In this document: piece by piece, positions 382-60,974 of the stretch
Layout of the letters: each line of letters opens with the position of its first letter
Numbering within the stretch: the stretch's first letter is position 1
From: Chloropicon primus
Lineage: Eukaryota
Reading direction: 5' to 3'
NCBI GenBank assembly: GCA_023205875.1
Contig: CP060758.1
Location: 992,001 to 1,056,000, forward strand
DNA: 64,000 nucleotides
Notes under the pieces: model-generated
The model's database searches: none
The model's input: only the letters and a program-made list of their open reading frames with translations
What the model was told of the DNA's origin: nothing
Translations under genes and position numbers: made by a program

Positions 382-734
382 AGATACACCTTATGGATCC
401 ATTATTCTGGATTGATGCCTCACCGTTTGTAAAATTACTGCTTGCAAAATTCCAGTTATTACTTTTGTCTCTCCTGAACACCCCACCCCCCAAAGAGAGT
501 GAGGGACAAGAGGGGACCGCCAAAAGAGGTCGCGTTGCAGGAAACTTGCGCGGGGCTCCTCCTCCTGCTGTCTTTGCCGCCCTGATCCGGGTTTCGGTCC
601 GACGAAAAAGACGCCACCTTGGAGGACGAGCTCAACCGCTTGGCACCACCAACGATGCTGGTGGAGGTGTGCAGCAGTGGAGGGGAGGGAGCAGGCAGGT
701 CGAGAGGATAGAGAATGCGACGACGACCGAGGTG

Positions 735-1542
735 ATGGACTGGAGCAGGCAGAAGAAGAAGACGAAGCCGAGGGTGCCCCAGCCGAGGCCGAGCGCCAAG
801 GCTGTGGTTCCCAAAGCCCGTCCCTTGGGTCGAAGCAGGAGCAACTCCTTTGTGCTGTCCAGAGTATTCGATGAGACGATAGAGAGCGAGTCCAAGAGGA
901 AAGACACGCCCACAAACTTCTTGGCCCGGGATGGTGAAGAAATCATTGAGCTCCAAGACGTGGAGTACGACTTTGGGTCCGAATGGTAAGTTCTCAACGA
1001 GCGTTCTGATTTCTCGAGGAATTCAGACTGACAACCAAGTCTCGAATTGTGCACACCGCAGGTTGGTCAAGTCCCCTCCCGAGAAGAAGCCTGTCCCTCG
1101 CATTGAGGAGAGGGAGATCCCCACGCCGGCCCCGGACGAAGTCGCGAGGCATAAGCTGCCTCCCCTTCCCAGGAAGAACCAGGAGCCGCGGGGCGAGGCT
1201 GCGGGGAAGCCGCCGAGATCGAAGGCTGCCGTTGCCAGGCGGGTGTCCTCGCTCCCCAAGCCAATCCAGCAGATTCCAAAGGGCTCCCCCGAGAATCACG
1301 GCAGCAAGCAGAGGAACGCGGAGACGCAGACCGAGCAGAGCGCGGAGGACGCCCCAGGCAAAGTGAAGGCGAACTCCACCAACAAGGAGTTCTTTGGGGA
1401 CTTTGATATTCTCAAGGAGATCAGGCTCTGCGGCGACCTGCTGCAGGAGATGGTGGAGAGCGCCTGTGATCTGAGCGAGTTGTACCAAAAGGAGCGGAGG
1501 AGGACCTCGAGGAAACAAAAGGCTTGTTGTACTATAATGTAG
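735..1542 (+). CDS. Hypothetical protein, 2 exons (735-985, 1062-1542), with a C-terminal polybasic + CaaX tail
   Basis: GTAAGT donor at 986, CTGAC branch motif, CAG acceptor ending 1061. Splicing joins ORF 195..989 in frame to ORF 931..1542. The protein ends RRRTSRKQKACCTIM*. Confidence 0.7.
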
Positions 1543-1640
1543 AAAAAAGGTCGCTGCAACATTTTGTGCAGCCCCCGGGAATAATATTCTTACAAGCGGA
1601 GAAGCACTTCCTGCCCCCCCGCCTTTTACTCTTTGCCGGT

Positions 1641-2414
1641 TCAACCTTCAAAGTCGCCCCACTGGTCATCCTCAAACCCCTCGCCACCGGCGTTGCTGGC
1701 TTTGGCCACCTCTGGCGCCGCAGGTGCTGCTTCGAAGCTGTCGAAGTCAGCCACCCAGTCCCCCTGAGCTGCCGCCGCTGGTGCGGGCGGTTTCTTCTGG
1801 GCCGCGGCAACTGGCGGTGGCGGAGCAAGCAATCCTCCGCCTGTGATCACCGGCTTCGCCCTGCCGTCTCCCACACTCAAGCGACTCTTGAGCTTGGAGG
1901 GGGACGCCCCCGGGGACTTCTTTATCTGAATCGTTATTTTCTCTCCCTCCTTCAAGCTGTAGTCCTTCTGGGCCTCAGTTGATTGCGCGAACTTCTCCTT
2001 GTAAGCGTCCGCCTCCTTCTTCCGCCTCAGGTACTGCCTGTGCTCGTCAATCGCGGCGTTGAAGTCCGAAGACTGCGTCCTTTCCCTGAATCCCAGTCCG
2101 ATGAAGGCGTGCCTCTTGGACTGCGGGTCCACGATCTTGAGGACGAAGTATCGGCTGCTGTCTACCACTGGCTCCACGGAGGTCAAGAAGTTCTCCGGCT
2201 TGGCCGGTAACGGGCACTCCGCGAAGAGCTCCTCCGTCTCCATATCGTACAGAGATATCACACACTTTTCACCCTCGGACTTCACCTTGAGGCTCACCTC
2301 CTTGAGCCACTTGTCGACGTTCCAGTCGTTCGCGCGGTGACCAGACGCGCTCGACGTCGGAGGGATCTGGTACACGTAGCACTCCCGGCAAGTGAACAGG
2401 CATACGGACGCCAT
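1641..2414 (-). CDS. NECAP: Adaptin ear-binding coat-associated protein (NECAP, PHear domain)
   Basis: YVYQIPP..GHRANDW, FAECP, VEPVVDSSRYFVLKI, AFIGLGFRER; C-terminal WGDF motif. Confidence 0.92.
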   Translation of the reverse strand: MASVCLFTCRECYVYQIPPTSSASGHRANDWNVDKWLKEVSLKVKSEGEKCVISLYDMETEELFAECPLPAKPENFLTSVEPVVDSSRYFVLKIVDPQSKRHAFIGLGFRERTQSSDFNAAIDEHRQYLRRKKEADAYKEKFAQSTEAQKDYSLKEGEKITIQIKKSPGASPSKLKSRLSVGDGRAKPVITGGGLLAPPPPVAAAQKKPPAPAAAAQGDWVADFDSFEAAPAAPEVAKASNAGGEGFEDDQWGDFEG

Positions 2415-2673
2415 GGCGGACACTTCAGCACACTCCTTGCTGTCAACCCCCCTCGCCCCCTTCTCTGGATGTGGGTGGATTGGCCCGCTTTTTCGAATCC
2501 TCAAAACTGAAAACTGAAACTGACGGGGAGGACTTGGCTGAGAGTGAGAGATCGATGGTGTTGGATGGATATGGATGGATGTGTCTTGAAATTACAATGT
2601 GAGAGAGCGACAATGTGACCCCCCGACTCCCTTCCCCCCACCCCTTGCCCCCCACCCCCACACTGGGGTCCCT

Positions 2674-3957
2674 TCACAACTCGATGTCAGCGGCCTTGAG
2701 GGCTCTGGCAACCCACTCGGGCGCGCCGTCGGGGTACAGCTTCTTCATGAAGTCCCGAACAAACTCGGGAAACCGCTGGTCCACGATGGATTCCCTGATG
2801 CCCTTCATCAGCTGCATCATGTAGTGCACGTTGTGGTACGAGACGAGGATGGCGCCGGTGCTGTCCTTGCACACGAGCCGGTGGAGCTGGCTCCTGGTGT
2901 ACTTCCTGCACACCATGCACTCGCAGTCCTCGTCGATGGGCCGGTGGTCCCCCTCCATCCCGGCCAGGGGAAGTCTGATGACCCCCGTCGGCACCAGAGC
3001 CGTCCCGAACCTCGCTGTCCTGGTCGGGTACACGCAGTCGTACATGTCCGCGCCGAGGGCCGAGCAGACCACGATGTCGACCGGGTACCCGATCCCCATG
3101 ACGTACCTTGGCTTCTGCTCCGGGAGGGCCGCCGTGCACCAGTCCACGACGTTCCAGAAGCTCTCCTTGTCCTCCCCCCCCGCGAGGCCGCCGATGGCGT
3201 ACCCGGGAATCCTGGCGTCCCTCTCCATCAGCTGTTTCAGCGAGGTCTGCCTCAAGTCGTAGTCCAAGCCGCCCTGGACGATGGGGAACAGGTTCTGGTC
3301 GTGGGGCCTCTCGTGCGCCTCGAGGCAGCGGTCGAACCACCTCGTCGTGCGGTACGTGGCCTCCTCGAACCTCTCGAGGCTCGGGTTCACGCTGCTGACG
3401 ACGTCGTCCAGGGCCATCATGATGTCGGCGCCCAGCTTGTTCTGGATCCTCATGCTGTGCTCGGGCGTGAGCATCATGCTCTGGCCGTCCGTGGGGTTCT
3501 GGAAGCTCACCCCCTCCTCGGTAATGTCCGCGAGGTGGAGGAGGGAGACCATCTGAAACCCGCCCGAGTCCGTCAGCATGGCACGGTCCCACCTCGAGAA
3601 CTCGTGGAGCCCCCCGAACTCCTCCACGACGTCCGCCCCCGGGCGGCTCTCCAAGTGGTACGTGTTCCCCAGCACCAGGTGGCAGTCCAGCCTCCTGAGC
3701 TGGTCCGGCGTCAACCCCTTGACGGATCCGTTCGTCCCCACCGGCATGAACATGGGCATCCTGCAGTCGTAATGAGGCAGCCTCATGACGCTCGCCCTCG
3801 CCCTCCCCTGCTTGGCGAGTATCCGAAACTCCAGGGCCTTGCCGTGCTGCTGCCCACCCCCCTTAAGCGGGGCGTTGGAAGGGCCGGAAGCCATCCACTT
3901 CCCGTCCCCCCGCTTCGCCTTCTTCGCCTCCGGGACGGGCGGGACCTCCAACGCCAT
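2674..3957 (-). CDS. QTRT1: Queuine tRNA-ribosyltransferase catalytic subunit
   Basis: FMPVGT, NTYHL, LTDSGGFQMVSL, PRYVMGIG, DCVYPTRTAR, CxCxxC Zn site, HN motif. Confidence 0.95.
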   Translation of the reverse strand: MALEVPPVPEAKKAKRGDGKWMASGPSNAPLKGGGQQHGKALEFRILAKQGRARASVMRLPHYDCRMPMFMPVGTNGSVKGLTPDQLRRLDCHLVLGNTYHLESRPGADVVEEFGGLHEFSRWDRAMLTDSGGFQMVSLLHLADITEEGVSFQNPTDGQSMMLTPEHSMRIQNKLGADIMMALDDVVSSVNPSLERFEEATYRTTRWFDRCLEAHERPHDQNLFPIVQGGLDYDLRQTSLKQLMERDARIPGYAIGGLAGGEDKESFWNVVDWCTAALPEQKPRYVMGIGYPVDIVVCSALGADMYDCVYPTRTARFGTALVPTGVIRLPLAGMEGDHRPIDEDCECMVCRKYTRSQLHRLVCKDSTGAILVSYHNVHYMMQLMKGIRESIVDQRFPEFVRDFMKKLYPDGAPEWVARALKAADIEL

Positions 3958-4252
3958 GCCCTCAAACCCTTTTCCGCGGGATCGTCGGAGTCACCGATGA
4001 CAACACCCAGTGACTGGGTGAGACAGACGACGACACAGGGGACAACTGCAACCTGCAAACCCACTGCAGGTGAAGAACAAGAGACAAGTCGAGAGGGCGA
4101 GGAGGAGGACGGACGTCCGCCTTGTTCAGTGAATCCTTTCGTTTCGTTTCGTTTCTCTCGGGTCCCGAGGACTCAAGGTTGCTTCGAACGTTTGCTTTGC
4201 TTTGCTTGTCTCCGTGTGTTTTGATTCGGTTTGGGGTGAGGCGGGCCAGACC

Positions 4253-7219
4253 ATGCCGCCCAATGCAGCAGGTGGGGCAGGAGGGGGAGAGGAGGGGGAG
4301 GTTTCGGTGAGGGAGGGGTGCTACGACGATGCGACGTTCGAGGAGATTAGCCTGGAGGCGATGGCCAGGCCGAGGAACGAGAAGAGTGTGGAGTACAGGC
4401 ACATCAGGCTGAAGAATGGCCTGAGAGCGATGCTCATCTCCGATCCGGAGACGGACAAGAGCGCGGCCGCGGTGGACGTCCGGGTGGGGTTCCTGAGCGA
4501 CCCCGCGGACTTGCCTGGCCTGGCCCACTTCACGGAGCACATGCTGTTCTACTCGAGCGAAAAGTACCCGGAGGAGGACGAGTACTCCAAATTCATCTCG
4601 GAGCACGGTGGGTTTTGCAACGCCTTCACCTCGACCGAGGACACGAACTACCACTTTGATGTGAACAGCGGGGACTTCGAGGCGGCCCTTGACCGGTTCG
4701 CGCAGTTCTTCGTGGCCCCCCTGATCTCCAAGGACGGGGTGGGCAGGGAGATCAAGGCGGTCAACTCTGAGAACAGCAAGAACCTGAACAACGACGTGTG
4801 GAGGAACATGCAGCTGTGGAGGCACCTGGCGAAGAAGGACCACCCTTTCCACAAGTTCGGGACGGGGAACCTCGAGACGCTGAAGAGCGACCCGGAGGCC
4901 AAGGGGATCGACACCCACGAGGAGATGCTCAAGTTCTACTCCGCAAACTACAGCGCCAACCTGATGACGCTGGCGGTGTACTCCAAGTTTCCCATGGACG
5001 ACCTGGAGAGGATGGTGGTGACCAAGTTCAACAAAGTGAAGACGCTGGGGAAGGAGGCCAACGTCTTCGACGACACGCCCTTCGACCCCCGGGAACACCA
5101 GTGCAAGCTGGCCAAGGTGGTGCCCATCAGGAACGTCCACGCGCTGGACTTTCAGTGGCTCACTCCCCCGGACGGGAAGGTCTACAGGCACATGCCCATG
5201 GACTACATGTCTCACCTCATCGGGCACGAGGGGGATGGCAGCATCCTGAAGCGTCTGAAGGACCTCAAGTGGGCGACCTCCCTGTCGGCCGGGCCCTCCC
5301 CGGAGTCTTACTCGTCCCACTCCCTGTTTCTGATCTCGATCGAGCTCACGGACGAGGGGAACAGCCACGTGCCGGAAGTCTCGAAGATCGTGTTTCAGTA
5401 CCTGAACATGCTCAGGGATGAGGGGATCCAGCCCTGGATATTCGAGGAGCTCAAGAGCATCGGCGAGACCAAGTTCAACTTCAGGGACAAGCAGAACGTG
5501 GGCTACTACACGAGGGAGTTGGCGAGCGGGATGCACCTCTACCCCTGCAAGGACTTGCTCCTCGGGCTCCACCACGTGCCGCAGGAGTACAACGAGGACA
5601 CCATCCAGGCCGTCCTGGACTGCATGACGGTGGACAAGGTGAGGATGATGTGGCTGTCGAAGACTCACAAGGGGAAGGTCACGGACGTTGAGCCATGGTA
5701 CGGGACCGAATTCGGGATGGACTCCTTGGAGGAGTCCCTGGTGGAAGACTTGAGGACTTGCGGAAGGAGCGAACATCTCCGGCTGCCCTACCAGAACCAG
5801 TTCATCCCCACGAACTTCGATCTGATCGAGAAGGAGGACTCCGTCAAGGAGGTGCCCGAGATGATCTACGAGTCCGAGATGAGCGAGCTGTGGTACAAGC
5901 CGGACACGCTCTTCGGCACGCCAAAGGGGCAGGTCTACCTTTCGGTGATATCCCCGGAGTGCTACTGCTCGCCGGAGGCGGCTGTCTGCACGAACCTGTA
6001 CACAAAGATGCTGGTGGACTCCATGAACGAGGTCACGTACTACGCGGAGGTCGCTGGCCTGGGGTACTCCATTCAGTCGACCACGGTGGGCATCCAGCTG
6101 GTTTTCGCGGGCTACAGCCACAAGCTGCTTGATCTGGTGGAGGAGGTCATCAAGCGCTTGCTCGCGTTCAAGCCCAAGCTCGAGAGGTACGAGGTCCTCA
6201 AGGAGCTGATGCAGAAGGACTTCGAGAACACCAGGTTCGACCAACCGTACCAGCAAGCCATCTACGCGACCTCGATCTTGTGCCTGCAGAAGAAGTGGCA
6301 CATCAAAGAGTACCTGGAGGTTCTGAAGCACTTGACGTTTCAGGACTTTGAAGTTTTCTTGGGCAGGATCATGCAGAGGGTGTCGAACCAGGTCATGATC
6401 CTGGGGAACCTCACCAAGACCCAGTGCGTTGGATTCGTCAAGACGATGGAAGGGATCCTGGGGTCCAATGGCACGAGAGCGATCTTTGGGTCTCAATTTC
6501 CCGAGAAGAGGGTGGTCCAGTTGGAGGGTGGGAGGGACTATGTGTACTCCCAACCGGTGGGAAACGAGGAGGAGGAGAACGGGGCCGTGAACATCATGTT
6601 TCAGATTGGCAGGGACTCGTTCAAGAGGAACACTCTGATGCAGCTTTGGGTCCAAATTGCCGAGAGAGCGGCGTTCCACACCCTAAGGAGCGTGGAGCAG
6701 ATAGGCTACATCGTCTGTGTGATGGGCTGGGATAGCCACCAGGTGAAAAACGTGTACTTCATTCTGCAGTCTTCCTCTCACCATCCCAGCAGCATAGATG
6801 CGAGCGTGGAGAAGTTCTTGGTCAGCTTCAAGACGAGGCTGGCGGAGATGGAGGAGAAGGAGTTTGAGGACCAGAAGAGCAGCCTGGAGCAAGTGAAGTT
6901 GGAGAAGCTCAAGAGTCTCGGGCAGGAGAGCAAGAGGTACTGGAAGGAAATCGACGAGTCGGCCTTCTCCTTCAAGAGGCAGGAGCTCGAAGTGGAGGAG
7001 CTGAAGAAGCTGACCCGAGAGGAGTTGTTGGAGTTCCACCAGACCTACTTTGAGGTCGGGAGCGCAAACCGGAGAAAGCTCAGCATCCACATGGTCTCCC
7101 ACAAGATGCCAAATCCAGAGGGAGACGGGAAGTCCGACGCCGCGGTCATCGAAGATGTCCACAAGTTCAAGAGAACCATGCACGTGATCCCTTGTGCCTT
7201 CGCTGCTGACAACAGATGA
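4253..7219 (+). CDS. IDE: Insulin-degrading enzyme-like M16A metallopeptidase
   Basis: GLAHFTEHMLF (HxxEH), NAFT, ALDRFAQFFVAPL, FGTGNLETL, HLIGHEGDGS, LRSVEQIGYIV. Confidence 0.93.
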   Translation: MPPNAAGGAGGGEEGEVSVREGCYDDATFEEISLEAMARPRNEKSVEYRHIRLKNGLRAMLISDPETDKSAAAVDVRVGFLSDPADLPGLAHFTEHMLFYSSEKYPEEDEYSKFISEHGGFCNAFTSTEDTNYHFDVNSGDFEAALDRFAQFFVAPLISKDGVGREIKAVNSENSKNLNNDVWRNMQLWRHLAKKDHPFHKFGTGNLETLKSDPEAKGIDTHEEMLKFYSANYSANLMTLAVYSKFPMDDLERMVVTKFNKVKTLGKEANVFDDTPFDPREHQCKLAKVVPIRNVHALDFQWLTPPDGKVYRHMPMDYMSHLIGHEGDGSILKRLKDLKWATSLSAGPSPESYSSHSLFLISIELTDEGNSHVPEVSKIVFQYLNMLRDEGIQPWIFEELKSIGETKFNFRDKQNVGYYTRELASGMHLYPCKDLLLGLHHVPQEYNEDTIQAVLDCMTVDKVRMMWLSKTHKGKVTDVEPWYGTEFGMDSLEESLVEDLRTCGRSEHLRLPYQNQFIPTNFDLIEKEDSVKEVPEMIYESEMSELWYKPDTLFGTPKGQVYLSVISPECYCSPEAAVCTNLYTKMLVDSMNEVTYYAEVAGLGYSIQSTTVGIQLVFAGYSHKLLDLVEEVIKRLLAFKPKLERYEVLKELMQKDFENTRFDQPYQQAIYATSILCLQKKWHIKEYLEVLKHLTFQDFEVFLGRIMQRVSNQVMILGNLTKTQCVGFVKTMEGILGSNGTRAIFGSQFPEKRVVQLEGGRDYVYSQPVGNEEEENGAVNIMFQIGRDSFKRNTLMQLWVQIAERAAFHTLRSVEQIGYIVCVMGWDSHQVKNVYFILQSSSHHPSSIDASVEKFLVSFKTRLAEMEEKEFEDQKSSLEQVKLEKLKSLGQESKRYWKEIDESAFSFKRQELEVEELKKLTREELLEFHQTYFEVGSANRRKLSIHMVSHKMPNPEGDGKSDAAVIEDVHKFKRTMHVIPCAFAADNR

Positions 7220-10400: not shown

Positions 10401-11252
10401 CACAAGTTTGACCTGAGGTTGTACGTCTTAGTGACCTGCTTCAACCCCCTCGAGGCTTGGATTTACAAGGAGGGCTTCGCGCGATTCTGCTCGGTCCCTT
10501 ACTCCACCGACAGGGAGAGCATGCAGGACAAGTACGTGCACTTGACCAACTCCTCCGTGCAGCAGAAGCTGTTCAACGACCCCGACTTTGCCTTGCCGGA
10601 CTGCTTGGGGCCCATGATCAGCGACGACCCCTTGCTGTCTCTCCCCGGAGGCTCGAAGCGCAGCTTGGCGTACCTCAAGGCGAAGCTCGAGGACTACGAG
10701 ATCAACTGGGACGGTTTGTGGCAGAAGATAAGAAAGGTCGTGCTCGCCGCCCTCTTCAGCGCCCAGGGCAAAATACCCTTCCAGCCCAACAGCTTTGAGC
10801 TCTTTGGCTTCGATGTCATGCTGGACGCCAACCTCAAGGTGTGGCTCCTCGAGGTCAACGCCTCGCCTTCCCTCGGGATCCAGACGCCCCTGGACCAGCA
10901 CGTGAAGAAGCAGCTCATCTGCGACGTTCTGAGGCTAGTCGACCCGTGCCAATACGACAGAAAAGCGTTGCTGGACATCGTCCAGCGAAAGATAGTCGAG
11001 AGGTCGGAGGCAAGAGGCCAAAAGAGGTCAGAGGTGGTCAGAGGCAAGGGACGTGACTGGAGAGACTGGGTCGCAGATGAGGACCAGAAGAAGAATGCGA
11101 TTAATTCTGACCTCAAGTCCATCCTTGGGGGTCGGAGGCCCCGCCAGTACGGCGAGAAGCCCCGTCACGTGGGGAGCTTCGAGAGAGTGGCTCCCGGGAA
11201 GGACTACAATGTATTCTCAAGGCTGAAGGGATTGGGGAGGGAGGGGAGGTAG
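7461..11252 (+). CDS. Tubulin-tyrosine ligase-like (TTLL) protein, probable polyglutamylase, with a long low-complexity N-terminus
   Basis: QRVNHYPG, WIMKPVSSSRGRGI, VQKYVSNPLLI..KFDLRLYVLV, HLTNSS, FELFGFDVMLD, WLLEVNASPS. Confidence 0.9.
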   Translation: MQVYDIYDAHDEELVVELRRLKALEAGGEALLDSSRKIIHHIEQELFERGVSGSLSNQLVGIAGETPQAREEEEVGVPPSTPPRPEPSPVPSPVPSPMQTPSPAAVFTPPRSSEPEANPRTPENSRADDDDQDDILTPLNQPSPSSSNASSVQGTPEKSLAGEDSEAVLAESPSVQDASLIAFREERNRLASARKFNKQKKFIQDREAMLSLAERRKSYAQLLARKTEKARTKAKKAAKRRERDSEQTPTKANPWKGGSSAKVSARSSTREAQPVEGDQKTTPRAPNSPSKRDSRQAERKGKASKGSSEIASQAGAKKEPSGGGLVSVRKLKSLRKEHSSPQAKENHKPPAVVEETAAGNDGAGGHTTNGEIKSMPPAESHIGVGEEQGDEGTTLIEEADAGGNGSSVQSRSAGGDSHHPDESEACDCTSKPDDDEATRERGPQEAIELESETAAPAEEAGLGVEESTPPVACAKTVAGDSNEAAREQEPQEAIDSLRAEKESKVVVEEPGTKIPLEEKVQTEVGASQVQGKVGSPARGEEPDREVEAPSPSSSTTSDDLDIVQDDADDLSSSSDELPSPVLQLLAQSDPLIHPFAGAAKSLTITDLPSLETNNPLSEWIRPMSAHNGVSAWGGTPDPSPPSSPRFMPSRGNGSQLFESKSEPGGAGQGAKQEAPAESPKKQDYNYAAMYEKFEEIFGRFIGEEKLSQGRPFSARKSPSSSKPPPKKVQTKAPYTDSDLLSFFERFRGGLYGWLRGFQSRLKATQESGAFVNGQAEDPGREDEVVAGAQMVYKVTDDKPEVYKLVTASCHTIGDWHEDMVSDAENPHWNILWSWSSKPKVNRQDLNIWQRVNHYPGANQLTRKDILKKNLAYCKSLFKPDRSVYKLFDIMPRTFSLPQEYVQFCNAFSESITFEKPDPKDKKGKNAKPKIIYGSENTWIMKPVSSSRGRGIFLINSIEEVEYGEAFVVQKYVSNPLLIHQHKFDLRLYVLVTCFNPLEAWIYKEGFARFCSVPYSTDRESMQDKYVHLTNSSVQQKLFNDPDFALPDCLGPMISDDPLLSLPGGSKRSLAYLKAKLEDYEINWDGLWQKIRKVVLAALFSAQGKIPFQPNSFELFGFDVMLDANLKVWLLEVNASPSLGIQTPLDQHVKKQLICDVLRLVDPCQYDRKALLDIVQRKIVERSEARGQKRSEVVRGKGRDWRDWVADEDQKKNAINSDLKSILGGRRPRQYGEKPRHVGSFERVAPGKDYNVFSRLKGLGREGR

Positions 11253-11617
11253 AGGTGATGGCGTTTGGGTTGGATTGGATTGGGATTGTGTAACAATAGT
11301 AGTAACAACAGAAGTAACAATAGTAACGCGGTGTTCTTGCTCATTAGCTCCTGGAATTGCGAGATGCGTCCAGCGGAGACACTCTGCAAGTCCCTCACCG
11401 AATCTTGTCTCTCCCCGAGTTTCGTTTGTTGATGCGAAGTTCCATGATCGTGGAAGGAAGGTCACCTGAACGACGTTTTTAGGATGGAACGAACGAACGA
11501 ACGAACGATGTGCCGGCGGTCAACGGAGACATACATAGTGTGGTGGAGGAGGATAGAATATTTCAGCTTTAGGATTGCTTTTGGGGGATTAGGATTAGGA
11601 TAGTCTTTAGGATCGGC

Positions 11618-12865
11618 TTAGGAGTCCTGTAGCATCATGTTGACGAGCATTGGATGCCGGATCACTACCTCTTTGGCCTTTCTGTTCTCGGACTCCAGCC
11701 GGCCGGAGCCAACGTTCACGCCGCCTCCTTCTGCGTTCTCCTCGTACCCCTTGCCGATTTTGCAATCGTTATGACTGCAGGACAAGCACCTCAAGCCCCT
11801 TGAACCCTTGGTTGGGATCAAGGGGATCGAGGGGATCTTCTCGATCAAGGCTTTCTCGGACTCAGGTTTCTTTGTACACGGAACACAAAACCAGAAGCCA
11901 ATCGTGTTCTTCAGTTGTGTCATGCCAATTTCCTTGCTCATGTCCCAAAGCTCCTTCTTGTCGACAGACTCCGTCGCTTTCAAGAAGCATCCGAACGAAC
12001 ACCACTGGTTAAAGCCGCTTTTGAATATGAAACGATGGCAGTACCAGCACCAGTTCGACAAGAGGTAATTGGGATTGTGCCCAGCTCGATCACGTTCCTC
12101 CCCAGGAACCGGGGTCAGAGCTCCTGTTTTGACCAAGGGGCACTCAGGGCGACGAAAAGCATCACAGCAGATGCAGCGCAGGGTTTGAGTACCGTCTGTA
12201 GTAGGAACTTGAGGAAGCTCCTCCATCAGCTTCCTTTCTTTGGTCTTCTTCTTCCCTTTCGTGTTGGTCTTGGCCTGTGTCTTCCTTTTCGTGCCAGTGC
12301 TCAAGGGACTGCTGCTGCAAGGTCCACAGGGACATGCGGCGGCATCGAATTTGCGAAGCTCTCTCTCCCTCTCCCCGCCGTCCTTGGCGTCGCTGTCCAC
12401 CAGAATGCAAGGACGACTCCTCTTGCACATGTCACAAGCACAAAGGCATCGAGTATGTGCTGGAGCGGTGTTCGCGGTGCCTGTTGTCCTGGACGACTTG
12501 CGAGAGCATTTATCAGCGCAGGAGCATTTGAAGAAATCTTTTTGAGTCACAGAGATCGCCGTGTTTGGGAAACATTCATTCTCAAACACGACATCGACAT
12601 GTTCTCCCTTTAGTGCATCCGCAAAGTACTCAAAGACTCTGCTCAATGCGTCTTCATCCAAGCCGTGTCCATCACGGTTTTCAAACAACTCGTCCCTCAC
12701 GGAGTGAACGTGGCAGTATTGCCTGTAGGTCTCCAGGAACTCCATGTGCTCCTCGCGAAGAATGACGTCGTAGTTCGCTTCCGTGATGGAACAAGCAGCG
12801 ACGAGCACACGAACTGTGGGTTGGTTCTTCCATGCGCGGACGAGATCACTCGCCCGTTGCTCCAC
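11618..12865 (-). CDS. Cys-rich hypothetical protein (several CxC/CxxC clusters, putative Zn fingers); probably the C-terminal part of the upstream recombinase ORF
   Basis: 415-aa ORF that begins at GTG, not ATG. Motifs CSCADKC, CLCACDMC, CPCGPC, CICCDA, WCWYCH..WCSFGC, FCVPC, CLSCSHNDC. The frame stays open upstream to about 12949, overlapping the recombinase ORF. Confidence 0.55.
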   Translation of the reverse strand: MEQRASDLVRAWKNQPTVRVLVAACSITEANYDVILREEHMEFLETYRQYCHVHSVRDELFENRDGHGLDEDALSRVFEYFADALKGEHVDVVFENECFPNTAISVTQKDFFKCSCADKCSRKSSRTTGTANTAPAHTRCLCACDMCKRSRPCILVDSDAKDGGERERELRKFDAAACPCGPCSSSPLSTGTKRKTQAKTNTKGKKKTKERKLMEELPQVPTTDGTQTLRCICCDAFRRPECPLVKTGALTPVPGEERDRAGHNPNYLLSNWCWYCHRFIFKSGFNQWCSFGCFLKATESVDKKELWDMSKEIGMTQLKNTIGFWFCVPCTKKPESEKALIEKIPSIPLIPTKGSRGLRCLSCSHNDCKIGKGYEENAEGGGVNVGSGRLESENRKAKEVVIRHPMLVNMMLQDS

Positions 12866-13763
12866 AAAGCGCTTTCCAAGAAGATACGAGGAGAAGGGGT
12901 TTCCCGTGCTTCTGCTCCCCCGGCTTCTCCAGATTCTCCAGCTTGTGCCTCAGGACGTGCTCGACGTGTTCGACGAGGAGACAAAGTTCCTCAGAAGTGC
13001 GCTGGTCCGATGCTACAGAACAACGGGTGGCGCCGAACTTGAGCACGTAGTGCGACGCCGAGTACACGGCGTGCCCGTCCGAGGTGCTTGCAGCCTTGCT
13101 CATGTACTTTTTGAGCTCCTCTTTCTTTTCCTCCCCAATCAAAGCTGCTGCATGGGACGTCGGGATGCACGCCAGTATAGAGGCCTGCCCTGCGCGCTCA
13201 GCAAGGTAGTCGAGGTCCTTGTAAGCTTGTGGCCGTCTCGACAATCGCGACAAGGCAGCTACAAGAAGCGCGCAAGGCTCGCCCTTCTCCTTCGCAAGGG
13301 CAAGAGCTTTCGTAAGAACTTTGCGGTCCTTGAGGCATCGCGAGCGGCTGGCGGTCCCAAGCTCCACGAAACGAAATGCTTTCACCTGTTTAGGAAGATC
13401 TTTGCCGAGCAACGCGCTTGAGATCGTGGCCGCCTGACCAGCGAGCTTGTTCCCAAGCCCCTCCCGCGCAAGGGACTCGCGGAGGAAGACGATGCAGTGG
13501 GTCAGTTCTTTCAAGCCCTCAACGCGCTCCAGGTGGACTCCGCCACGGCCTCGGACCACGCGGACCAGGGTCAGCTCCTCAGGCTCGCGAGTTCGCTCCG
13601 CCCGTGTACCCTCGCGTGCAAGGGTGGGCGGCGCGCCAGCTAATTCGTCTGCGAAGCGAAGAGAGGCAATAAGTCCATCCGCATTGAGAAGCGTCGTCGG
13701 ATCCACGTTCTCCTCGATGGCGGCCATCTCCCGCTCCCTATGAGGTCCCGCGGAGGTCGCCAT
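12846..13763 (-). CDS. Serine recombinase (resolvase/IS607 TnpA-like) catalytic-domain protein
   Basis: Ordered motifs IVFLRES (YxRxS-like, Ser codon 13475-13473), LAGQAATI (Q), FVELGTAS (ExxSG-like), DRKVLTKAL (R..L), LLVAALSRLSR (lvv..dRLxR). Likely start is ATG 13763 or 13727. Confidence 0.7.
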   Translation of the reverse strand: MATSAGPHREREMAAIEENVDPTTLLNADGLIASLRFADELAGAPPTLAREGTRAERTREPEELTLVRVVRGRGGVHLERVEGLKELTHCIVFLRESLAREGLGNKLAGQAATISSALLGKDLPKQVKAFRFVELGTASRSRCLKDRKVLTKALALAKEKGEPCALLVAALSRLSRRPQAYKDLDYLAERAGQASILACIPTSHAAALIGEEKKEELKKYMSKAASTSDGHAVYSASHYVLKFGATRCSVASDQRTSEELCLLVEHVEHVLRHKLENLEKPGEQKHGKPLLLVSSWKALCGATGE

Positions 13764-14233
13764 GGCCACTGTGCAAGCGTTGGTGTCCAGGCTTGCCGCA
13801 CGGCTGCCCGCTGCCCTGCAAGTGGGTGAAGACAGAGACATTGGCACCACAATCCTTGGGCGCCACCCGCCATCCTTGGGCGCCACCCACCTGGAGAACC
13901 GCGGCCGGGGTGGCGCCACCAGCCCCTTCTTCACATGACGACCCAGTATTCGTCAGTCTCCTCTTCTTCGTCGGCAAGCAACCCGCGGCCGGAGTATTCC
14001 AGGAGGTAACTCATCGCTTTCTCTCTGGTCGTGGTCTTCTCGTCCCCACTCGTCGGCCGCCTCGTTCGCGGCTCTGGCGTTACGGCGGCTCTCTTTCTCT
14101 CTCCAGCTCCGCCAGGTCACACACCTCGCCGTCCTCCGCCGTTACGATCTCGTTGTGATCCTTCTATAACTAACGTCTCTCACCGAACCATTGTCTCGCG
14201 GAGCAAGAGGAGAGGCGGCTGTTGTTTCGCCGC

Positions 14234-14256
14234 CTCCTCGGTGGGGATTCGAACCC
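14234..14256 (-). pseudogene. Isolated tRNA 3' fragment (T-loop + acceptor 3' strand, Asp-like)
   Basis: Minus strand reads GGGTTCGAATCCCCACCGAGGAG: B-box/T-loop, then a 7-nt acceptor strand CCGAGGA and discriminator G. No matching 5' half nearby. Confidence 0.5.
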
Positions 14257-14259
14257 TAG

Positions 14260-14362
14260 TTCCCAACAACAGGATCGAACTGTTGACCTTCACGTATCTC
14301 ATGGATCGATGCTCGATGCATGCATATTAGCGTGACGCTCTAACCTGCTGAGCTAGTCGGGA
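14260..14362 (-). tRNA. tRNA-Ile(AAT) with a 29-nt intron at canonical position 37/38 (intron 14296-14324)
   Basis: Cloverleaf: acceptor TCCCGAC/GTTGGGA, D arm GCTC..GAGC, anticodon stem TCACG/CGTGA with loop CT-AAT-A^A, T arm AACAG-TTCGATC-CTGTT, discriminator A. Confidence 0.88.
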
Positions 14363-39504: not shown

Positions 39505-39763
39505 CCTCCTCGCGGCGCGCACCCACAACCACGCTCGCACTCCACGAGGCTGCATCACGTGGCTCTCAATGAAGACCAGCAGCAGGTGCAGACCAGGATG
39601 TTGGAGGTTTTCCCCTGTTGGTGGGATTCCAGTGTATACCAGTTTGGTCACACCCAAAGGACAACCCACTAAGCGTTTTTCTCGTGTTCACTTGCTGGAC
39701 AAGGCAAATCTATAGTTACGAGGAGTTACGAGGAGGGCAGCGAGTGAAACCCTAATAACCGTC

Positions 39764-41854
39764 ATGGCGCGATCAGGGAAGCGCCGTAAGAAAAAGGAGA
39801 AGCAGGGGAGTGGCTCGACGAGTTCCACAAGGAGGTCGCACTCTGGCGAGAGTCATGCTCAGGGCGCTTCGAAGTCGGGGCAGGAGTCTCCGACGACGGA
39901 GCGGCCGTTACTTCGCTTCTGGAATCAGGCGTTGAAGTGGCTCTACGCGTTGTGCCTGCTTCCTACCGCGGACGACCCCGCCTCTGCGGGTGAGGGTTCG
40001 AGCACGCCTCGCAAGAAGCGGGGGGGGAAGCGGAAGGGGAAGCCGCCGGAGGCGGACGCCTCTGCGGGTGAGAGTTCGAGCTCGTCAGGCAAGCCTCGCA
40101 AGAAGCCTCGCAAGAAGGGCAAGAAGAAGAACAAGAAGAAGGGTAAGAAGAAGAAGAACAAGAGGGGGAAGAAAGCAGGGAAGCAGCCGGGTGGCTTGGC
40201 GGACGACAGCGTGAAGAACACGTGGTTCTCATCGATCAAGAGAGAACTTGAAGAGGTAAAGTGTCCGAAGACGGGATGGAGGTCGTGCTTGAACGTTCCA
40301 GAAGATTCTGTGGTATCCGTCGAGACATTGCAGCCGCCCGCCAAAAGGAAGAGGGAGCAGAAGCTGAAGACCTCCAAGCTATTGTCGGAGCGAACGGTGA
40401 TACGGACGAGGAAGCTTAGGATGCGCTTGAACCCTGAGCAGGCGAGAACACTTTGCAACTGGATGGGAGCTGCGCGTTTCACATACAACAAGTGTTTGGA
40501 GGCGGTCAAGAAGGAGGGTTTTCCGCTGGTTTGGACCGTCCTGCTGGACAGATTTGTGACGGCCAAACCGCGACGCCCTGAGGTCTTTGAGGGCCTGGAG
40601 AAAGAGCTGAAAGAAATCCAATGCTCTCCACGGCCATGGACAAAACAGGAGGCAGAGCTTTTCGCGGCCAGAGAGAAGAGACTCGAGAGCCAAATTGGAG
40701 GCAGAGCTTTTCGCCTCCAAGTGGCCAAGGACCGGGACTACGTTAGCGGGGCCTTTGTGAATCAGGAGCATCCTTGGCTGAAGGAAACCCCCTGTGCCAT
40801 CAGACAAGCTGCCGTGCGAAGTCTCATCAAGGCATGGGATTCGAACACCGCGAAGCAGGAAGCGATGAAGGAGCGCGGCGAGGAGAAGGGGCACCGCTTC
40901 GTTCTCAAGTATCGTCAACGTCAGCAACCGAGCTCTTGGACCATTGAAATTAATGCAAGAGACTTAAAGAACGTGGAGACGATCGAAAGACCGAGAACGA
41001 GGCACAAGGATGACACGAAGCACAAAAAACGACGCAAGTGGACCAAGCTGGAGGTGTTCAAGGAGAAGATGGCCGGCGGGCCCCTGTACTTGACGGAGGA
41101 GATCCCCGGGGGCAAGATCGAGGGTGCCGTGAAGATCACAAGAAATCGCCTTGGGCAGTTCCACATGCACATTCCCATCGCGACGCCATGGGATCGCCTG
41201 CCACCCCTGAAGCCTGAGAACAAGCGGAAGGTTGTCGCCCTGGATCCGGGAGTCAGGACCTTTCAGACGTCGTACTCGCCGCAAGAAGGCGTCGGGGAGT
41301 ATGCCAAGGGCGAGCGAGGCTTCGCGAGGCTGTTCAACCTCTGCCGGAGGATTGATGAGATCATTTCCGAGCGCAAAGACCCAAAGGTGAAGCTCCCTTA
41401 CCTCGACCGCCGCGACTTGAAGAGACAGCAATACGCCTGCATGGAGAAAATTCGAGGTCTGACTAACGAGCTTCACAAAAAGGTAGCCAACGATCTATGC
41501 AGGAGGTTCGACACAATCCTCCTCCCGGAGTTCAAGTCCCAAGACATGGTGAAGAAGAACAACAACGGGAGACGCCGAGTGATCAGGAAGAAGACGGCTC
41601 GCACGCTCTTGACGTTGAGGCACTATGTGTTCAGAACGTACTTGGCTTCCAAGGTGCTCTTGCACGGCAGTGAGCTGGCGATCGTGACGGAGGAGTACAC
41701 CTCCAAGACCTGTGGCAGGTGCGGACACATCAAGAAGAACCTGGGTGGAGCAGAGGTGTACAAGTGCCAGAAGTGTGGCTTCAAGTGCGGTCGGGATGTG
41801 AACGGGGCACGCAACGTCCTCCTGAAGCACTTGCGTCAACCAAAAAGTGTGTAA
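39764..41854 (+). CDS. Fz2: Fanzor (Fanzor2/IS607-TnpB-like) RNA-guided DNA endonuclease, 696 aa, intronless
   Basis: RTRKLRMRLNPEQ..L..WMGAARFTYNKCL (TnpB N-terminal), WLKETPCAIRQAAV, RuvC-I VALDPGVRTF (D494), ILLPEF (P588), alternative Glu in VTEEYTSKTC (E643/E644), Zn ribbon CGRC..CQKC, RuvC-III RDVNGARN (D678). Lys-rich N-terminal extension. Confidence 0.93.
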   Translation: MARSGKRRKKKEKQGSGSTSSTRRSHSGESHAQGASKSGQESPTTERPLLRFWNQALKWLYALCLLPTADDPASAGEGSSTPRKKRGGKRKGKPPEADASAGESSSSSGKPRKKPRKKGKKKNKKKGKKKKNKRGKKAGKQPGGLADDSVKNTWFSSIKRELEEVKCPKTGWRSCLNVPEDSVVSVETLQPPAKRKREQKLKTSKLLSERTVIRTRKLRMRLNPEQARTLCNWMGAARFTYNKCLEAVKKEGFPLVWTVLLDRFVTAKPRRPEVFEGLEKELKEIQCSPRPWTKQEAELFAAREKRLESQIGGRAFRLQVAKDRDYVSGAFVNQEHPWLKETPCAIRQAAVRSLIKAWDSNTAKQEAMKERGEEKGHRFVLKYRQRQQPSSWTIEINARDLKNVETIERPRTRHKDDTKHKKRRKWTKLEVFKEKMAGGPLYLTEEIPGGKIEGAVKITRNRLGQFHMHIPIATPWDRLPPLKPENKRKVVALDPGVRTFQTSYSPQEGVGEYAKGERGFARLFNLCRRIDEIISERKDPKVKLPYLDRRDLKRQQYACMEKIRGLTNELHKKVANDLCRRFDTILLPEFKSQDMVKKNNNGRRRVIRKKTARTLLTLRHYVFRTYLASKVLLHGSELAIVTEEYTSKTCGRCGHIKKNLGGAEVYKCQKCGFKCGRDVNGARNVLLKHLRQPKSV

Positions 41855-42060
41855 CTCCTCAGGGTTGCACATACGTTTGTTAGTACGGGCTGCCGTGCGT
41901 GGGCGGAAGTATTCGTTCATGTACGGTGGAATGGTCGTGGTAGGGCTGAATTACCCTGCCGAGAAACTTACAAACTCGGTGAAACGACCTTTGCAGAAAA
42001 CTAACAGGTAAGTAGGGGCCGGTTTCTCTCCGTGTTTCTCTCTTTCAGTGGAAAGGAGAA
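41847..42060 (+). ncRNA. Candidate Fanzor omegaRNA scaffold plus adjacent guide region (boundaries uncertain)
   Basis: Nested helices immediately 3' of the ORF: 41847-41872 hairpin, TGTTAGT/ACTAACA, GTACGG/CCGTGC, GGTCGT/ACGACC, GGTAGGG/CCCTGCC, CCGAG/CTCGG. This is the position expected for TnpB/Fanzor omegaRNAs. Confidence 0.6.
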
Positions 42061-42312
42061 CTTGCCTTTGTGCTTCCAGTATTGACTGTGATTTCCCTAC
42101 CGTCCTTTCGTGACTTTTCTGTGTGCTGTTTTTGATCTGATGTCTGAACACCATAACAAGACCTGACCTTGAAACGTGCCCGATGAGCCGCAGAAGGAGA
42201 TGAGAGTGAGAATGAGGAGTCCACGCAACACGCATTCCCGATGCCGGAGCCTCGGTATTATTAAAAAAGGGTTTATCTTTCTCAAGCAGGCTTTCATATT
42301 AATCTCGTTCCC

Positions 42313-57456: not shown

Positions 57457-58278
57457 ATGAGGAAGATGACGACGATGAAGTCCGCACTGGGGGCGGCGGT
57501 GCTCCTTCTGCTGCTCTCCGCGCAAGCGAGGGCGAGCGAGGACGACCACGACCACGGGCACGACGACCACGGGCACGGGCACGCCCACGAGAAGTGCGCC
57601 TGCCTGGCCAAGAAGAAGGGGTTTACGATCGGGTGCTCGGGGGACACCATGGGCCAGGTCGAGGGCGCCATCGAGACCCTGAAGAACCCCGCGAACGGGT
57701 GCAAGGACGGCAGCTGCGAGACGCAGTACTACATCTTGCAGGCCCACCACGATTTCTGCCCCACAGACATGCTGCCAAGGGAGGCCGAGAAGTTCATTCA
57801 CGACTTCGAGGATAACTACGAGGACTGCTTCATCCCCAGGCTGCTCGATCCCTCCCTGGAGGCTTGCCCGCCCGTGGACTGCAACGCCACGGACGCCTTC
57901 ACGCAGGCCGCCGCGGCGCTGGAGAGCGGGGACTGCAAGACCTCCTGCGACTCGGACGCGTGCAAGGTCGCCATCCAGACCATTCTCATGGGTCACGACA
58001 CTTGCGATGAGGACGACTTGCCCATCGAGGTTGAGAAGGCTCTCCACGATTACGAGATGGCTTGCGCCCCCAACCTGTGCAACACGAGCGACAAGCCGTA
58101 CGAGCCTGGGATGGAGAAATGCGACGACGACCATGACGACGACCATGACGACGACCATGACGATGATCACGGCGACGACGACCATGACGACCATGATGAC
58201 GACCATGATGACGACCATGACCACGACGATGAGGACAAGGCCAAGGAAACCGCCACACCTGTATCCACTTCTGACTGA
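57457..58278 (+). CDS. Secreted His/Asp/Cys-rich putative metal-binding protein, copy 1
   Basis: Signal peptide, His-rich N-terminus, two Cys-rich repeats with H-D-x-C...H-D-F/Y-E, (DDDH)n tail. Confidence 0.8.
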   Translation: MRKMTTMKSALGAAVLLLLLSAQARASEDDHDHGHDDHGHGHAHEKCACLAKKKGFTIGCSGDTMGQVEGAIETLKNPANGCKDGSCETQYYILQAHHDFCPTDMLPREAEKFIHDFEDNYEDCFIPRLLDPSLEACPPVDCNATDAFTQAAAALESGDCKTSCDSDACKVAIQTILMGHDTCDEDDLPIEVEKALHDYEMACAPNLCNTSDKPYEPGMEKCDDDHDDDHDDDHDDDHGDDDHDDHDDDHDDDHDHDDEDKAKETATPVSTSD

Positions 58279-58804
58279 GGCGTCGGCCAATTTTCAGCAA
58301 AGCAGTGCATTGACATGAAATGAATTTTTGGGTGAATGAATGAATGCCCGCCTCCCCCGCCTCCTACTCCGGGCGGAACGACCCGTCCCCCCTGGCTTTC
58401 CACTTTCCTGCGAAGACCTCCGACGGTGATCGACCCCGCGATGATGATGATGATGAGATCGACCGGGGAGGAGGACGCCGGGAAGAATCCAATCCAATCC
58501 CCTGTCGACTTCAATCGAGTCATGGTTGGTTCCCTCCTCCTCCTCTTCCTATTGCATGTGTGATGATGGAGTCATCGTCGCCATGATCCTCTCCTCTGGC
58601 TCTTCATCATCCCATCAAGATATTTTCTAGTTTTCGTAACTCCTGGCTAAGGTCTCAGCAGGGACGAGGGGGAATGACTCCATCATCGTCATCGGCATCG
58701 TAACGGTTTGGGGCGTTGTGTGTGGTTGTTGTTCCTGACCAATAGAAACCCTAAGCACGGCGGCGACCAACACCAACACCAACACCACGAGGACGACGAC
58801 GAGG

Positions 58805-59626
58805 ATGAGGAAGATGACGACGATGAAGTCCGCACTGGGGGCGGCGGTGCTCCTTCTGCTGCTCTCCGCGCAAGCGAGGGCGAGCGAGGACGACCACGAC
58901 CACGGGCACGACGACCACGGGCACGGGCACGCCCACGAGAAGTGCGCCTGCCTGGCCAAGAAGAAGGGGTTTACGATCGGGTGCTCGGGGGACACCATGG
59001 GCCAGGTCGAGGGCGCCATCGAGACCCTGAAGAACCCCGCGAACGGGTGCAAGGACGGCAGCTGCGAGACGCAGTACTACATCTTGCAGGCCCACCACGA
59101 TTTCTGCCCCACAGACATGCTGCCAAGGGAGGCCGAGAAGTTCATTCACGACTTCGAGGATAACTACGAGGACTGCTTCATCCCCAGGCTGCTCGATCCC
59201 TCCCTGGAGGCTTGCCCGCCCGTGGACTGCAACGCCACGGACGCCTTCACGCAGGCCGCCGCGGCGCTGGAGAGCGGGGACTGCAAGACCTCCTGCGACT
59301 CGGACGCGTGCAAGGTCGCCATCCAGACCATTCTCATGGGTCACGACACTTGCGATGAGGACGACTTGCCCATCGAGGTTGAGAAGGCTCTCCACGATTA
59401 CGAGATGGCTTGCGCCCCCAACCTGTGCAACACGAGCGACAAGCCGTACGAGCCTGGGATGGAGAAATGCGACGACGACCATGACGACGACCATGACGAC
59501 GACCATGACGATGATCACGGCGACGACGACCATGACGACCATGATGACGACCATGATGACGACCATGACCACGACGATGAGGACAAGGCCAAGGAAACCG
59601 CCACACCTGTATCCACTTCTGACTGA
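58805..59626 (+). CDS. Secreted His/Asp/Cys-rich putative metal-binding protein, copy 2
   Basis: Identical protein to copy 1. Confidence 0.8.
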   Translation: MRKMTTMKSALGAAVLLLLLSAQARASEDDHDHGHDDHGHGHAHEKCACLAKKKGFTIGCSGDTMGQVEGAIETLKNPANGCKDGSCETQYYILQAHHDFCPTDMLPREAEKFIHDFEDNYEDCFIPRLLDPSLEACPPVDCNATDAFTQAAAALESGDCKTSCDSDACKVAIQTILMGHDTCDEDDLPIEVEKALHDYEMACAPNLCNTSDKPYEPGMEKCDDDHDDDHDDDHDDDHGDDDHDDHDDDHDDDHDHDDEDKAKETATPVSTSD

Positions 59627-60152
59627 GGCGTCGGCCAATTTTCAGCAAAGCAGTGCATTGACATGAAATGAATTTTTGGGTGAATGAATGAATGCCCGCC
59701 TCCCCCGCCTCCTACTCCGGGCGGAACGACCCGTCCCCCCTGGCTTTCCACTTTCCTGCGAAGACCTCCGACGGTGATCGACCCCGCGATGATGATGATG
59801 ATGAGATCGACCGGGGAGGAGGACGCCGGGAAGAATCCAATCCAATCCCCTGTCGACTTCAATCGAGTCATGGTTGGTTCCCTCCTCCTCCTCTTCCTAT
59901 TGCATGTGTGATGATGGAGTCATCGTCGCCATGATCCTCTCCTCTGGCTCTTCATCATCCCATCAAGATATTTTCTAGTTTTCGTAACTCCTGGCTAAGG
60001 TCTCAGCAGGGACGAGGGGGAATGACTCCATCATCGTCATCGGCATCGTAACGGTTTGGGGCGTTGTGTGTGGTTGTTGTTCCTGACCAATAGAAACCCT
60101 AAGCACGGCGGCGACCAACACCAACACCAACACCACGAGGACGACGACGAGG

Positions 60153-60974
60153 ATGAGGAAGATGACGACGATGAAGTCCGCACTGGGGGCGGCGGTGCTC
60201 CTTCTGCTGCTCTCCGCGCAAGCGAGGGCGAGCGAGGACGACCACGACCACGGGCACGACGACCACGGGCACGGGCACGCCCACGAGAAGTGCGCCTGCC
60301 TGGCCAAGAAGAAGGGGTTTACGATCGGGTGCTCGGGGGACACCATGGGCCAGGTCGAGGGCGCCATCGAGACCCTGAAGAACCCCGCGAACGGGTGCAA
60401 GGACGGCAGCTGCGAGACGCAGTACTACATCTTGCAGGCCCACCACGATTTCTGCCCCACAGACATGCTGCCAAGGGAGGCCGAGAAGTTCATTCACGAC
60501 TTCGAGGATAACTACGAGGACTGCTTCATCCCCAGGCTGCTCGATCCCTCCCTGGAGGCTTGCCCGCCCGTGGACTGCAACGCCACGGACGCCTTCACGC
60601 AGGCCGCCGCGGCGCTGGAGAGCGGGGACTGCAAGACCTCCTGCGACTCGGACGCGTGCAAGGTCGCCATCCAGACCATTCTCATGGGTCACGACACTTG
60701 CGATGAGGACGACTTGCCCATCGAGGTTGAGAAGGCTCTCCACGATTACGAGATGGCTTGCGCCCCCAACCTGTGCAACACGAGCGACAAGCCGTACGAG
60801 CCTGGGATGGAGAAATGCGACGACGACCATGACGACGACCATGACGACGACCATGATGATGATCACGGCGACGACGACCATGACGACCATGATGACGACC
60901 ATGATGACGACCATGACCACGACGATGAGGACAAGGCCAAGGAAACCGCCACACCTGTATCCACTTCTGACTGA
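60153..60974 (+). CDS. Secreted His/Asp/Cys-rich putative metal-binding protein, copy 3
   Basis: Identical protein; a synonymous C>T in the Asp/His tail. Confidence 0.8.
   Translation: MRKMTTMKSALGAAVLLLLLSAQARASEDDHDHGHDDHGHGHAHEKCACLAKKKGFTIGCSGDTMGQVEGAIETLKNPANGCKDGSCETQYYILQAHHDFCPTDMLPREAEKFIHDFEDNYEDCFIPRLLDPSLEACPPVDCNATDAFTQAAAALESGDCKTSCDSDACKVAIQTILMGHDTCDEDDLPIEVEKALHDYEMACAPNLCNTSDKPYEPGMEKCDDDHDDDHDDDHDDDHGDDDHDDHDDDHDDDHDHDDEDKAKETATPVSTSD

Follow-up and report, generated by a model that had tools for sequence, protein, structure and literature searches.

What does an open reading frame with the motifs of a serine recombinase represent in a eukaryotic nuclear genome, and which class of enzyme does it belong to? 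We addressed this question for a 64,000-nucleotide stretch of Chloropicon primus (GenBank assembly GCA_023205875.1, contig CP060758.1, positions 992,001 to 1,056,000), hereafter the window, in which an open frame of 305 amino acids lies on the minus strand (12846..13763; all coordinates are those of the window). A prior inspection of the letters, here called the sequence-only reading, had flagged this frame as a divergent serine-recombinase element with a possible N-terminal winged helix-turn-helix (wHTH) like that of IS607 TnpA, which might supply transposase in trans to a Fanzor2 gene 26 kb away. We conclude that the flagged frame is a non-autonomous remnant of a repeat that encodes a tandem double serine recombinase. 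This eukaryotic repeat is real and, apparently, undescribed.

The intact gene encodes two serine recombinase domains in tandem

The motifs named in the sequence-only reading are present where it placed them: IVFLRES, with the predicted catalytic serine Ser97 (codon 13473..13475, minus strand), FVELGTAS, DRKVL and LLVAALSRLSR. From the open reading frame listing, Pfam and profile alignment, the frame comprises a first serine-recombinase domain (domain 1, ending in S-R-L-S-R), helix E and a linker. On its own it matches the Pfam Resolvase model with E = 0.0015 and 19.1 bits, below the 23.3-bit cut-off. A profile of the frame and its relatives scores 40.3 against serine-recombinase profiles, where the maximum of 40 shuffles is 14.6. 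Among the 18 records examined, the motif with this serine is kept in 17; the remaining one is a fragment without that part.

We found 17 protein records of this family, with named loci on chromosomes 2, 3, 5, 6, 9, 15, 16 and 17 (two annotation sets). Six records of 781–950 amino acids have two complete catalytic domains arranged one after the other, with a Cys-rich tail behind them; locus A3770_09p56710 (950 amino acids) is an example of an intact copy. All four catalytic motifs (both R-x-S and both R-L-x-R) are complete in 6 of the 18 records examined. Two stretches matching Pfam Resolvase (PF00239) were detected in 7 of 12 records scanned, with whole-protein E-values of 4.5e-11 to 4.6e-10 and 40–43.5 bits, exceeding the curated cut-off. 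Motif A (R-x-S) reads FLRES in domain 1 of the window copy and IARTS in domain 2 (Ser361 of record P0027), with YLRQS, HLRTS and IGRTS in relatives, and motif C, (D/S)-R-L-x-R, reads SRLSR in domain 1 and DRLTR in domain 2. The domain 2 motifs follow one another as V-G-I-A-R-T-S, E-K-C-G-G and R-A-D-R-L-T-R. With insertions, 76 and 88 residues separate the Ser from the Arg in the two domains, compared with medians of 63–70 elsewhere. In the longest record (P0038, 950 amino acids) the last 350 residues contain 26 cysteines and eight CxxC-type clusters, a tail that matches no family; Recombinase (PF07508) and zinc-ribbon domains gave no Pfam match at E ≤ 1.

For residues 120–570, 28 of the 30 nearest ESM Atlas clusters are Resolvase clusters (best 0.92). 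The two AlphaFold models have mean pLDDT values of 37 and 42, and in the latter, built from five sequences, domain 1 shows the resolvase order of alternating strands and helices. Foldseek searches with this low-confidence model returned serine recombinases in 7 of the first 9 PDB rows (best E = 6e-3, all E > 0.001) and in many BFVD rows, top ones among them. PDB sequence searches gave nothing significant.

Two distant relatives among the ENA proteins (P0008 and P0009, 31–38% identity) retain both catalytic serine motifs: the domain 1 motifs are present, and so is the beginning of domain 2 (I-G-R-T-S-P), beyond which the records diverge or stop. A closer ENA relative (P0004, 68% identity) has a long, differing N-terminal extension with an internal repeat (residues 1–210); its RRWTPPE stretch, which has no Pfam match, recalls a Myb-type repeat. 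Pattern- and BLAST-based searches, which miss distant relatives, found none in viral_contigs, JGI metagenome_contigs, GTDB genome_contigs or plasmids, and in phages a single match with 8% coverage and E = 0.7. A profile search of the protein collection (lengths up to 786 amino acids) revealed no further family member. Eight matches of one profile (A3) across 802 bacterial genomes (E = 0.004–0.01) fall in frames that read as unrelated enzymes and were set aside as chance.

The family is hidden in public annotation because gene models splice or fuse pieces of the element. UniProt labels some copies automatically as resolvase-domain proteins. In the models P0003, P0006, P0028, P0030, P0031 and P0032, portions of the recombinase domains are removed as introns, or stretches of the element are fused with host genes. 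In P0031 and P0032, annotators joined element pieces to unrelated host genes; a ferrochelatase and an FAD oxidoreductase are the host genes in such fused models.

The window carries an internally deleted copy of a dispersed repeat

The flagged frame lies within a dispersed repeat of about 2.9 kb (11332..14242), whose boundaries we define as the outermost bases common to other copies, with a possible error of a few bases. In DNA runs X1 and X2, single-copy flank contigs end at 11361 and resume from 14204–14213, and loose contig ends at 11332 and 14242 lead into other flanks. Summed contig depth, which is not a copy number, is 112–132 outside and about 700–5000 inside the element in these runs; in both it is higher at the right end, which carries a hairpin (3600–5000), than at the left end (500–840). 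The boundaries of the repeat are sharp and the flanks differ among copies, which are 94–96% identical over domain 1. The GC content at third codon positions (GC3) of the element gene pieces is 0.69 and 0.64, compared with 0.73–0.88 in four neighbouring host genes.

Intact copies are at least 440 bp longer than the window copy. The difference is a 440-bp deletion whose scar, with 3-nt microhomology, is at 12885..12887 (minus strand). Contig 12 of run X4 (1279 nt) aligns to 12885–13186 and to 12348–12887 with 437 nt between, and loose contig ends at 12885/12887 continue into domain 2 sequence. The deletion removed residues 383–528 of the 950-residue protein and with them the whole of domain 2; it also changed the reading frame, so that the last 12 residues of the flagged frame are a frameshifted tail. 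A Cys-rich open frame at 11618–12865 is the remainder of the same gene: by match to intact records, the region 11618..12886 (minus strand) holds the end of helix E2, a helical region and the Cys-rich tail, and corresponds to no Pfam family. An 813-residue C. primus record covers both the flagged frame (95%, 334 amino acids) and the Cys-rich frame (92%, 415 amino acids) in a search of 50%-identity representatives. Record P0038 aligns to the window in three frames, only residues 383–528 being without a match.

The N-terminus is broken as well (13795..14014, minus strand; MSYLLEY..., with a basic PTKKRRL stretch). Indel tables against other copies, from the contigs of several runs, place two upstream frameshifts in the window copy, with four extra bases at 13974 and 17 missing bases at 13794. 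The flagged frame is therefore an open frame with genuine motifs, but it is the front half of a broken gene rather than a whole one. The deleted form is present at more than one locus, because the same frameshifted tail ends four records, on chromosomes 5 and 6.

No Fanzor or TnpB gene lies inside the element, which contains one broken gene only, and no other open frame in it is fit for a transposase. Downstream of the gene, copies differ at 11399–11471 and 11631–11634, with at least three alternative sequences, one of which matches the left end over its initial 68 bp. At 14040–14183, where summed depth peaks, short tandem-like motifs differ among copies. The data suggest that shorter derivatives exist which are non-coding and have retained the right end.

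The enzyme is nearer in sequence to resolvases and large serine recombinases than to IS607 TnpA

To assign the enzyme to a class we used profiles from fetched bacterial loci, comprising 15 IS607 TnpAs, 38 small resolvases and 27 large serine recombinases; of these, the TnpA set has the lowest diversity, and loci L179, L209, L211 and L223, from genomes marked unpublished, are excluded. Domain 1 scores 43 against small resolvases, 47 against large serine recombinases and 23 against IS607 TnpA in hhalign comparisons, and domain 2 scores 34, 34 and 15, respectively. Above 5 bits, domain 1 is matched by none of the 15 TnpAs, 15 of the 38 small resolvases and 8 of the 27 large serine recombinases; none of the 15 TnpAs exceeds this value with domain 2 either. 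No IS607 model matched at E ≤ 5 in an NCBIfam scan.

The proposed N-terminal wHTH also failed to appear. Against an IS607 HTH profile the window protein reaches −1.4 bits, where the 95th percentile of shuffles is 0.4, and the hhalign probability is 0.3%; Pfam scans of the window proteins and family records revealed no HTH family at E ≤ 1. Likeness to the IS607 wHTH is limited to a predicted beta-hairpin with a GG turn ahead of domain 1 (13530..13565, minus strand), the "wing" of the sequence-only reading, which relatives keep and which no helix-turn-helix precedes. A GG[EQ]RR stretch in P0008 and P0009 resembles the TnpA wing, with 0.9 and 0.3 bits against the IS607 HTH profile. A weak contrary pointer comes from Foldseek, where the low-confidence model has the catalytic domain of ISC1926 TnpA as its first match (E = 6e-3), a rank that is within noise of the integrase rows (1e-2). 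As judged from sequence, the enzyme is not supported as one of the IS607 kind and is nearer to resolvases and large serine recombinases. Of the flagged "divergent serine-recombinase element", the serine-recombinase fold and the mobile-element origin are retained and the IS607 TnpA identity is not.

The element ends and a proposed transposition mechanism

The two ends (plus-strand coordinates throughout) share no terminal inverted repeats (TIRs), an inverted end alignment as good being reached by 160 of 1000 shuffles. They do share an 8-bp asymmetric inverted repeat, with the left copy (TCTTGCTC, 11335..11342) 3 nt from the left end and the right copy (14201..14208) 34 nt from the right end, directly before the hairpin (6 of 2000 shuffles, for a pair chosen post hoc). 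A 22-bp subterminal direct repeat is common to both ends (11390..11411 and 14175..14197; 20 of 23 columns identical, pair score reached by 3 of 1000 shuffles) and is a candidate binding site. The 11-bp hairpin (14207..14239; −10.9 kcal/mol, with 28 of 500 shuffles as stable) ends 3 nt inside the right end. A 5′-terminal hairpin involving the 5′ repeat is not significant, 70 of 500 shuffles being as stable.

CGGTG occurs in register at the left (11329..11333) and right (14239..14243) junctions, a context found at 83 of the 12,535 T sites of the window (0.7%). It flanks the element on both sides, as a 5-nt target site duplication (TSD) would, but overlaps bases common to other copies. It may be a recombination core, a TSD or chance, which are not separable here because contig branch points give the outermost shared base only. 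We compared two left junctions (window and X5) and three right rows (window, X2 and X3), X2 being a consensus of two contigs with an agreement of 0.68. Among these few junctions, GG is found at both window junctions and not in the X5 left flank, and no empty site was seen.

Serine recombinases use four active sites to cut two duplexes; rotation of two subunits is followed by resealing of the strands across a 2-bp core. We think it probable that this repeat is a eukaryotic transposon and that its own product, a single-chain serine recombinase with two active sites, moves it. The protein of about 950 amino acids would excise the element and reinsert it by serine-recombinase strand exchange, with the Cys-rich tail binding the subterminal repeats and two polypeptides supplying the four active sites of the tetramer. 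Excision would yield a circle that would insert at targets with a loose resemblance to the junction at the ends (CGG-T-G in this copy), and deleted copies such as that in the window would be moved in trans by intact ones. Most speculatively, the half of the tetramer that rotates would consist of the two linked domains, one of them engaging element DNA and the other target DNA; rotation is simplest to square with a covalent link when both members of the linked pair turn as a unit. Ends that are unrelated and carry subterminal direct and asymmetric inverted repeats are described for IS607 in PMC6188088, and the ends of the element match that description.

Several results weigh against transposition by the double recombinase. 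Domains 1 and 2 have no mutual similarity in hhalign (probability 0.2%), domain 2 is not resolvase-like in the five-sequence model (pLDDT 30–50), and VIA-align lists only long-helix matches for that model. For serine recombinases the two junctions normally need to carry the same 2-bp core, GG in the case of IS607 (PMC6188088); here only T is constant across the compared junctions, neither TG nor GT being common to all. No end-to-end circle joint occurs in the contig joint tables of 8 runs, although contigs drop rare molecules and cannot show absence. The heterozygous-indel table of the C. primus genome paper (PMC6731263, Supplementary Data 8) lists 10 long indels; in their first 400 nt none matches the element ends, which gives no sign of present-day activity, whereas three of the 10 are Fanzor elements. 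Runs X3, X4 and X7, guessed to be RNA, cover the gene in intact form, with no depth at 11180–11395 in X4 and X7, a weak hint of transcription. Finally, the ends fit part of the Helitron2 description as well.

Alternative explanations for the repeat

Because the end anatomy resembles the account of Helitron2 in PMC3627910 and the T is constant, we considered a second explanation, the main rival, which we regard as unlikely but deserving of weight: the repeat could be a non-autonomous Helitron2-like (or other) element moved by an enzyme encoded elsewhere, with the double recombinase as cargo that possibly resolves multimeric rolling-circle products. A parallel for such cargo is Fanzor1, which is carried by Helitron2 elements in Chlamydomonas. 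Like Chlamydomonas CRe-1, CRe-2 and CRe-3, the element has a 5′ T, short asymmetric inverted repeats and a 3′ hairpin together with a cargo gene. The 8-bp repeat falls in the 8–15-bp range of the Helitron2 trait set, its 3′ copy is directly before the terminal hairpin, the gene is on the opposite strand (as in PMC3627910, in the part describing these elements) and T is found at every junction seen. The depth excess at the hairpin end in X1 and X2 also recalls the 3′ excess reported for CRe-1. Against this, the 5′ hairpin that defines Helitron2 is not significant here, the repeats are 3 and 34 nt from the ends, slightly outside the ranges of 0–2 and 20–30 given in PMC3627910, and the flanks are not the T-runs that Helitron2 targets. 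In-register CGGTG at both junctions has a chance of about 0.7% under a T-only rule. The element contains no RepHel, and the main text of the C. primus genome paper (PMC6731263) has no match for "Helitron".

The sequence-only reading, in which a divergent IS607 TnpA that has lost TnpB mobilises Fanzor2* in trans, is now improbable. Passages of 10.1101/2023.08.09.552727 describe the C. primus Fanzor2* as a cut-and-paste element with TIRs and 5-nt TSDs and with no known partner; this missing partner, the Foldseek rank of ISC1926 TnpA (pLDDT-42 model), the wing-like stretch of P0008 and P0009, and a TGTT start common to the left end of the recombinase element and both Fanzor ends, a loose thread, speak in its favour. 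According to the same source and parts of PMC6188088, serine recombinases do not make TIRs and TSDs of this kind. The enzyme has no wHTH, both of its domains score lowest against IS607 TnpA, and it is 950 amino acids long compared with about 200 for IS607 TnpA. The recombinase-element ends have no match to the Fanzor region among the blastn matches listed, and the window copy is broken, so that supply of transposase in trans finds no support.

The Fanzor2* element itself is at 39599–42158 of the window (open frame 39764–41854, plus strand), with ends TGTTGGAGG...CACCATAACA placed from published indel rows. AGACC occurs 4 nt outside its left end and directly after its right end. Its protein cluster has 46 members, and the indel rows of the genome paper include three heterozygous Fanzor2* insertions of 2.66–2.71 kb, two of which show 25–26 unrelated bases past the right end. 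Scanning around the Fanzor gene for a TIR with a TSD revealed no clean pair.

Least probable of all is a history without transposition, in which a recombinase gene gained by horizontal transfer was spread through segmental duplications or became domesticated. Such spread is reported for many eukaryotic IS607-like fragments (PMC3673617) and for yeast serine recombinases (PMC2715888); the sharp boundaries, the unrelated flanks and the many deleted or frameshifted copies speak against it here.

Genomic context of the element

The window is nuclear DNA of C. primus, as flanking host genes are present and the closest relatives of the element protein are C. primus proteins, in agreement with the eukaryotic nuclear host assumed at the outset. 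Pfam identifies tubulin-tyrosine-ligase-family (TTL), GRAB and TPR genes in the window. The element has the TTL gene on one side and, on the other, an intron-bearing tRNA-Ile and the GRAB-domain gene. The tRNA-Ile(AAT) gene (14259..14362, minus strand, with a 29-nt intron) lies 16 nt beyond the right end and is overlooked by a default tRNA scan. A second perfect B-box-like T-arm sequence, after that of the tRNA-Ile, adjoins the right end at 14245–14255 (GGTTCGAATCC). Targeting of tRNA genes was considered and dropped because the other flanks seen are not tRNA-like. Elsewhere in the window, three tandem, near-identical open frames of 273 amino acids (57457–60974, spaced by 1348 bp) have a signal-peptide-like start and His/Asp-rich tracts, and may encode metal-binding secreted proteins.

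Relation to known systems and implications

We found no description of the element, or of tandem serine-recombinase domains, in full-text literature outside subscription journals and Repbase. The main text of the genome paper (PMC6731263) has no match for "recombinase" or "resolvase", and six locus tags of the family were not found in the 13 of its 20 supplementary files that were searched. The literature covered also includes PMC10711439. Eukaryotic serine recombinases treated in the pertinent parts of PMC3627910, PMC2715888 and PMC3673617 are IS607-derived. Among these, the Lachancea (Saccharomyces) kluyveri family resembles the element in that a eukaryotic nucleus carries multiple copies of a serine recombinase gene with no TnpB, but its proteins are described in PMC2715888 as short and IS607-type, each combining a DNA-binding domain at the N-terminus with a single catalytic domain.

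The IS607 family shares a serine-recombinase fold as the only candidate transposase and unrelated ends without TIRs that carry subterminal direct and asymmetric inverted repeats, whereas the element has two catalytic domains in a 950-residue chain, no wHTH, a Cys-rich tail, no TnpB or Fanzor and no constant GG core among the junctions seen. Both domains match the resolvase/invertase family model (PF00239) and contain motifs A and C, but the Ser-to-Arg spacing is longer and no C-terminal HTH was found. The bacterial elements Tn4451 (TnpX) and Tn5397 (TndX) are excised and inserted by a single gene product with one catalytic domain in front and a cysteine-bearing C-terminal region. The protein described here resembles these in domain order, cysteines and, as proposed, single-gene movement, and differs in its eukaryotic host, its second catalytic domain and the lack of detectable Pfam Recombinase and zinc-ribbon domains. 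DDE cut-and-paste elements differ in having TIRs, which were not detected at the ends of the recombinase element.

More broadly, and tentatively, the element may represent a group of DNA transposons of eukaryotes that has not been classified before and that spans more than one lineage of algae or protists. The transposase of such a group would be a natural single-chain serine recombinase in which the two active sites differ, one serving element DNA and the other target DNA, and it would work in chromatin without TIRs or a strict att site. For the Fanzor field, an apparent candidate for the missing Fanzor2* transposase is removed. An integrase adapted to the eukaryotic nucleus would be of interest as a scaffold for genome engineering. 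If the proposed transposition is correct, an enzyme of the resolvase or large-recombinase type would add a type of transposase to the classification of eukaryotic transposons. Because each serine can be mutated separately, the tandem divergent catalytic domains would make two questions testable: by what means a serine transposase distinguishes the element from its target, and which of the subunits turn together.

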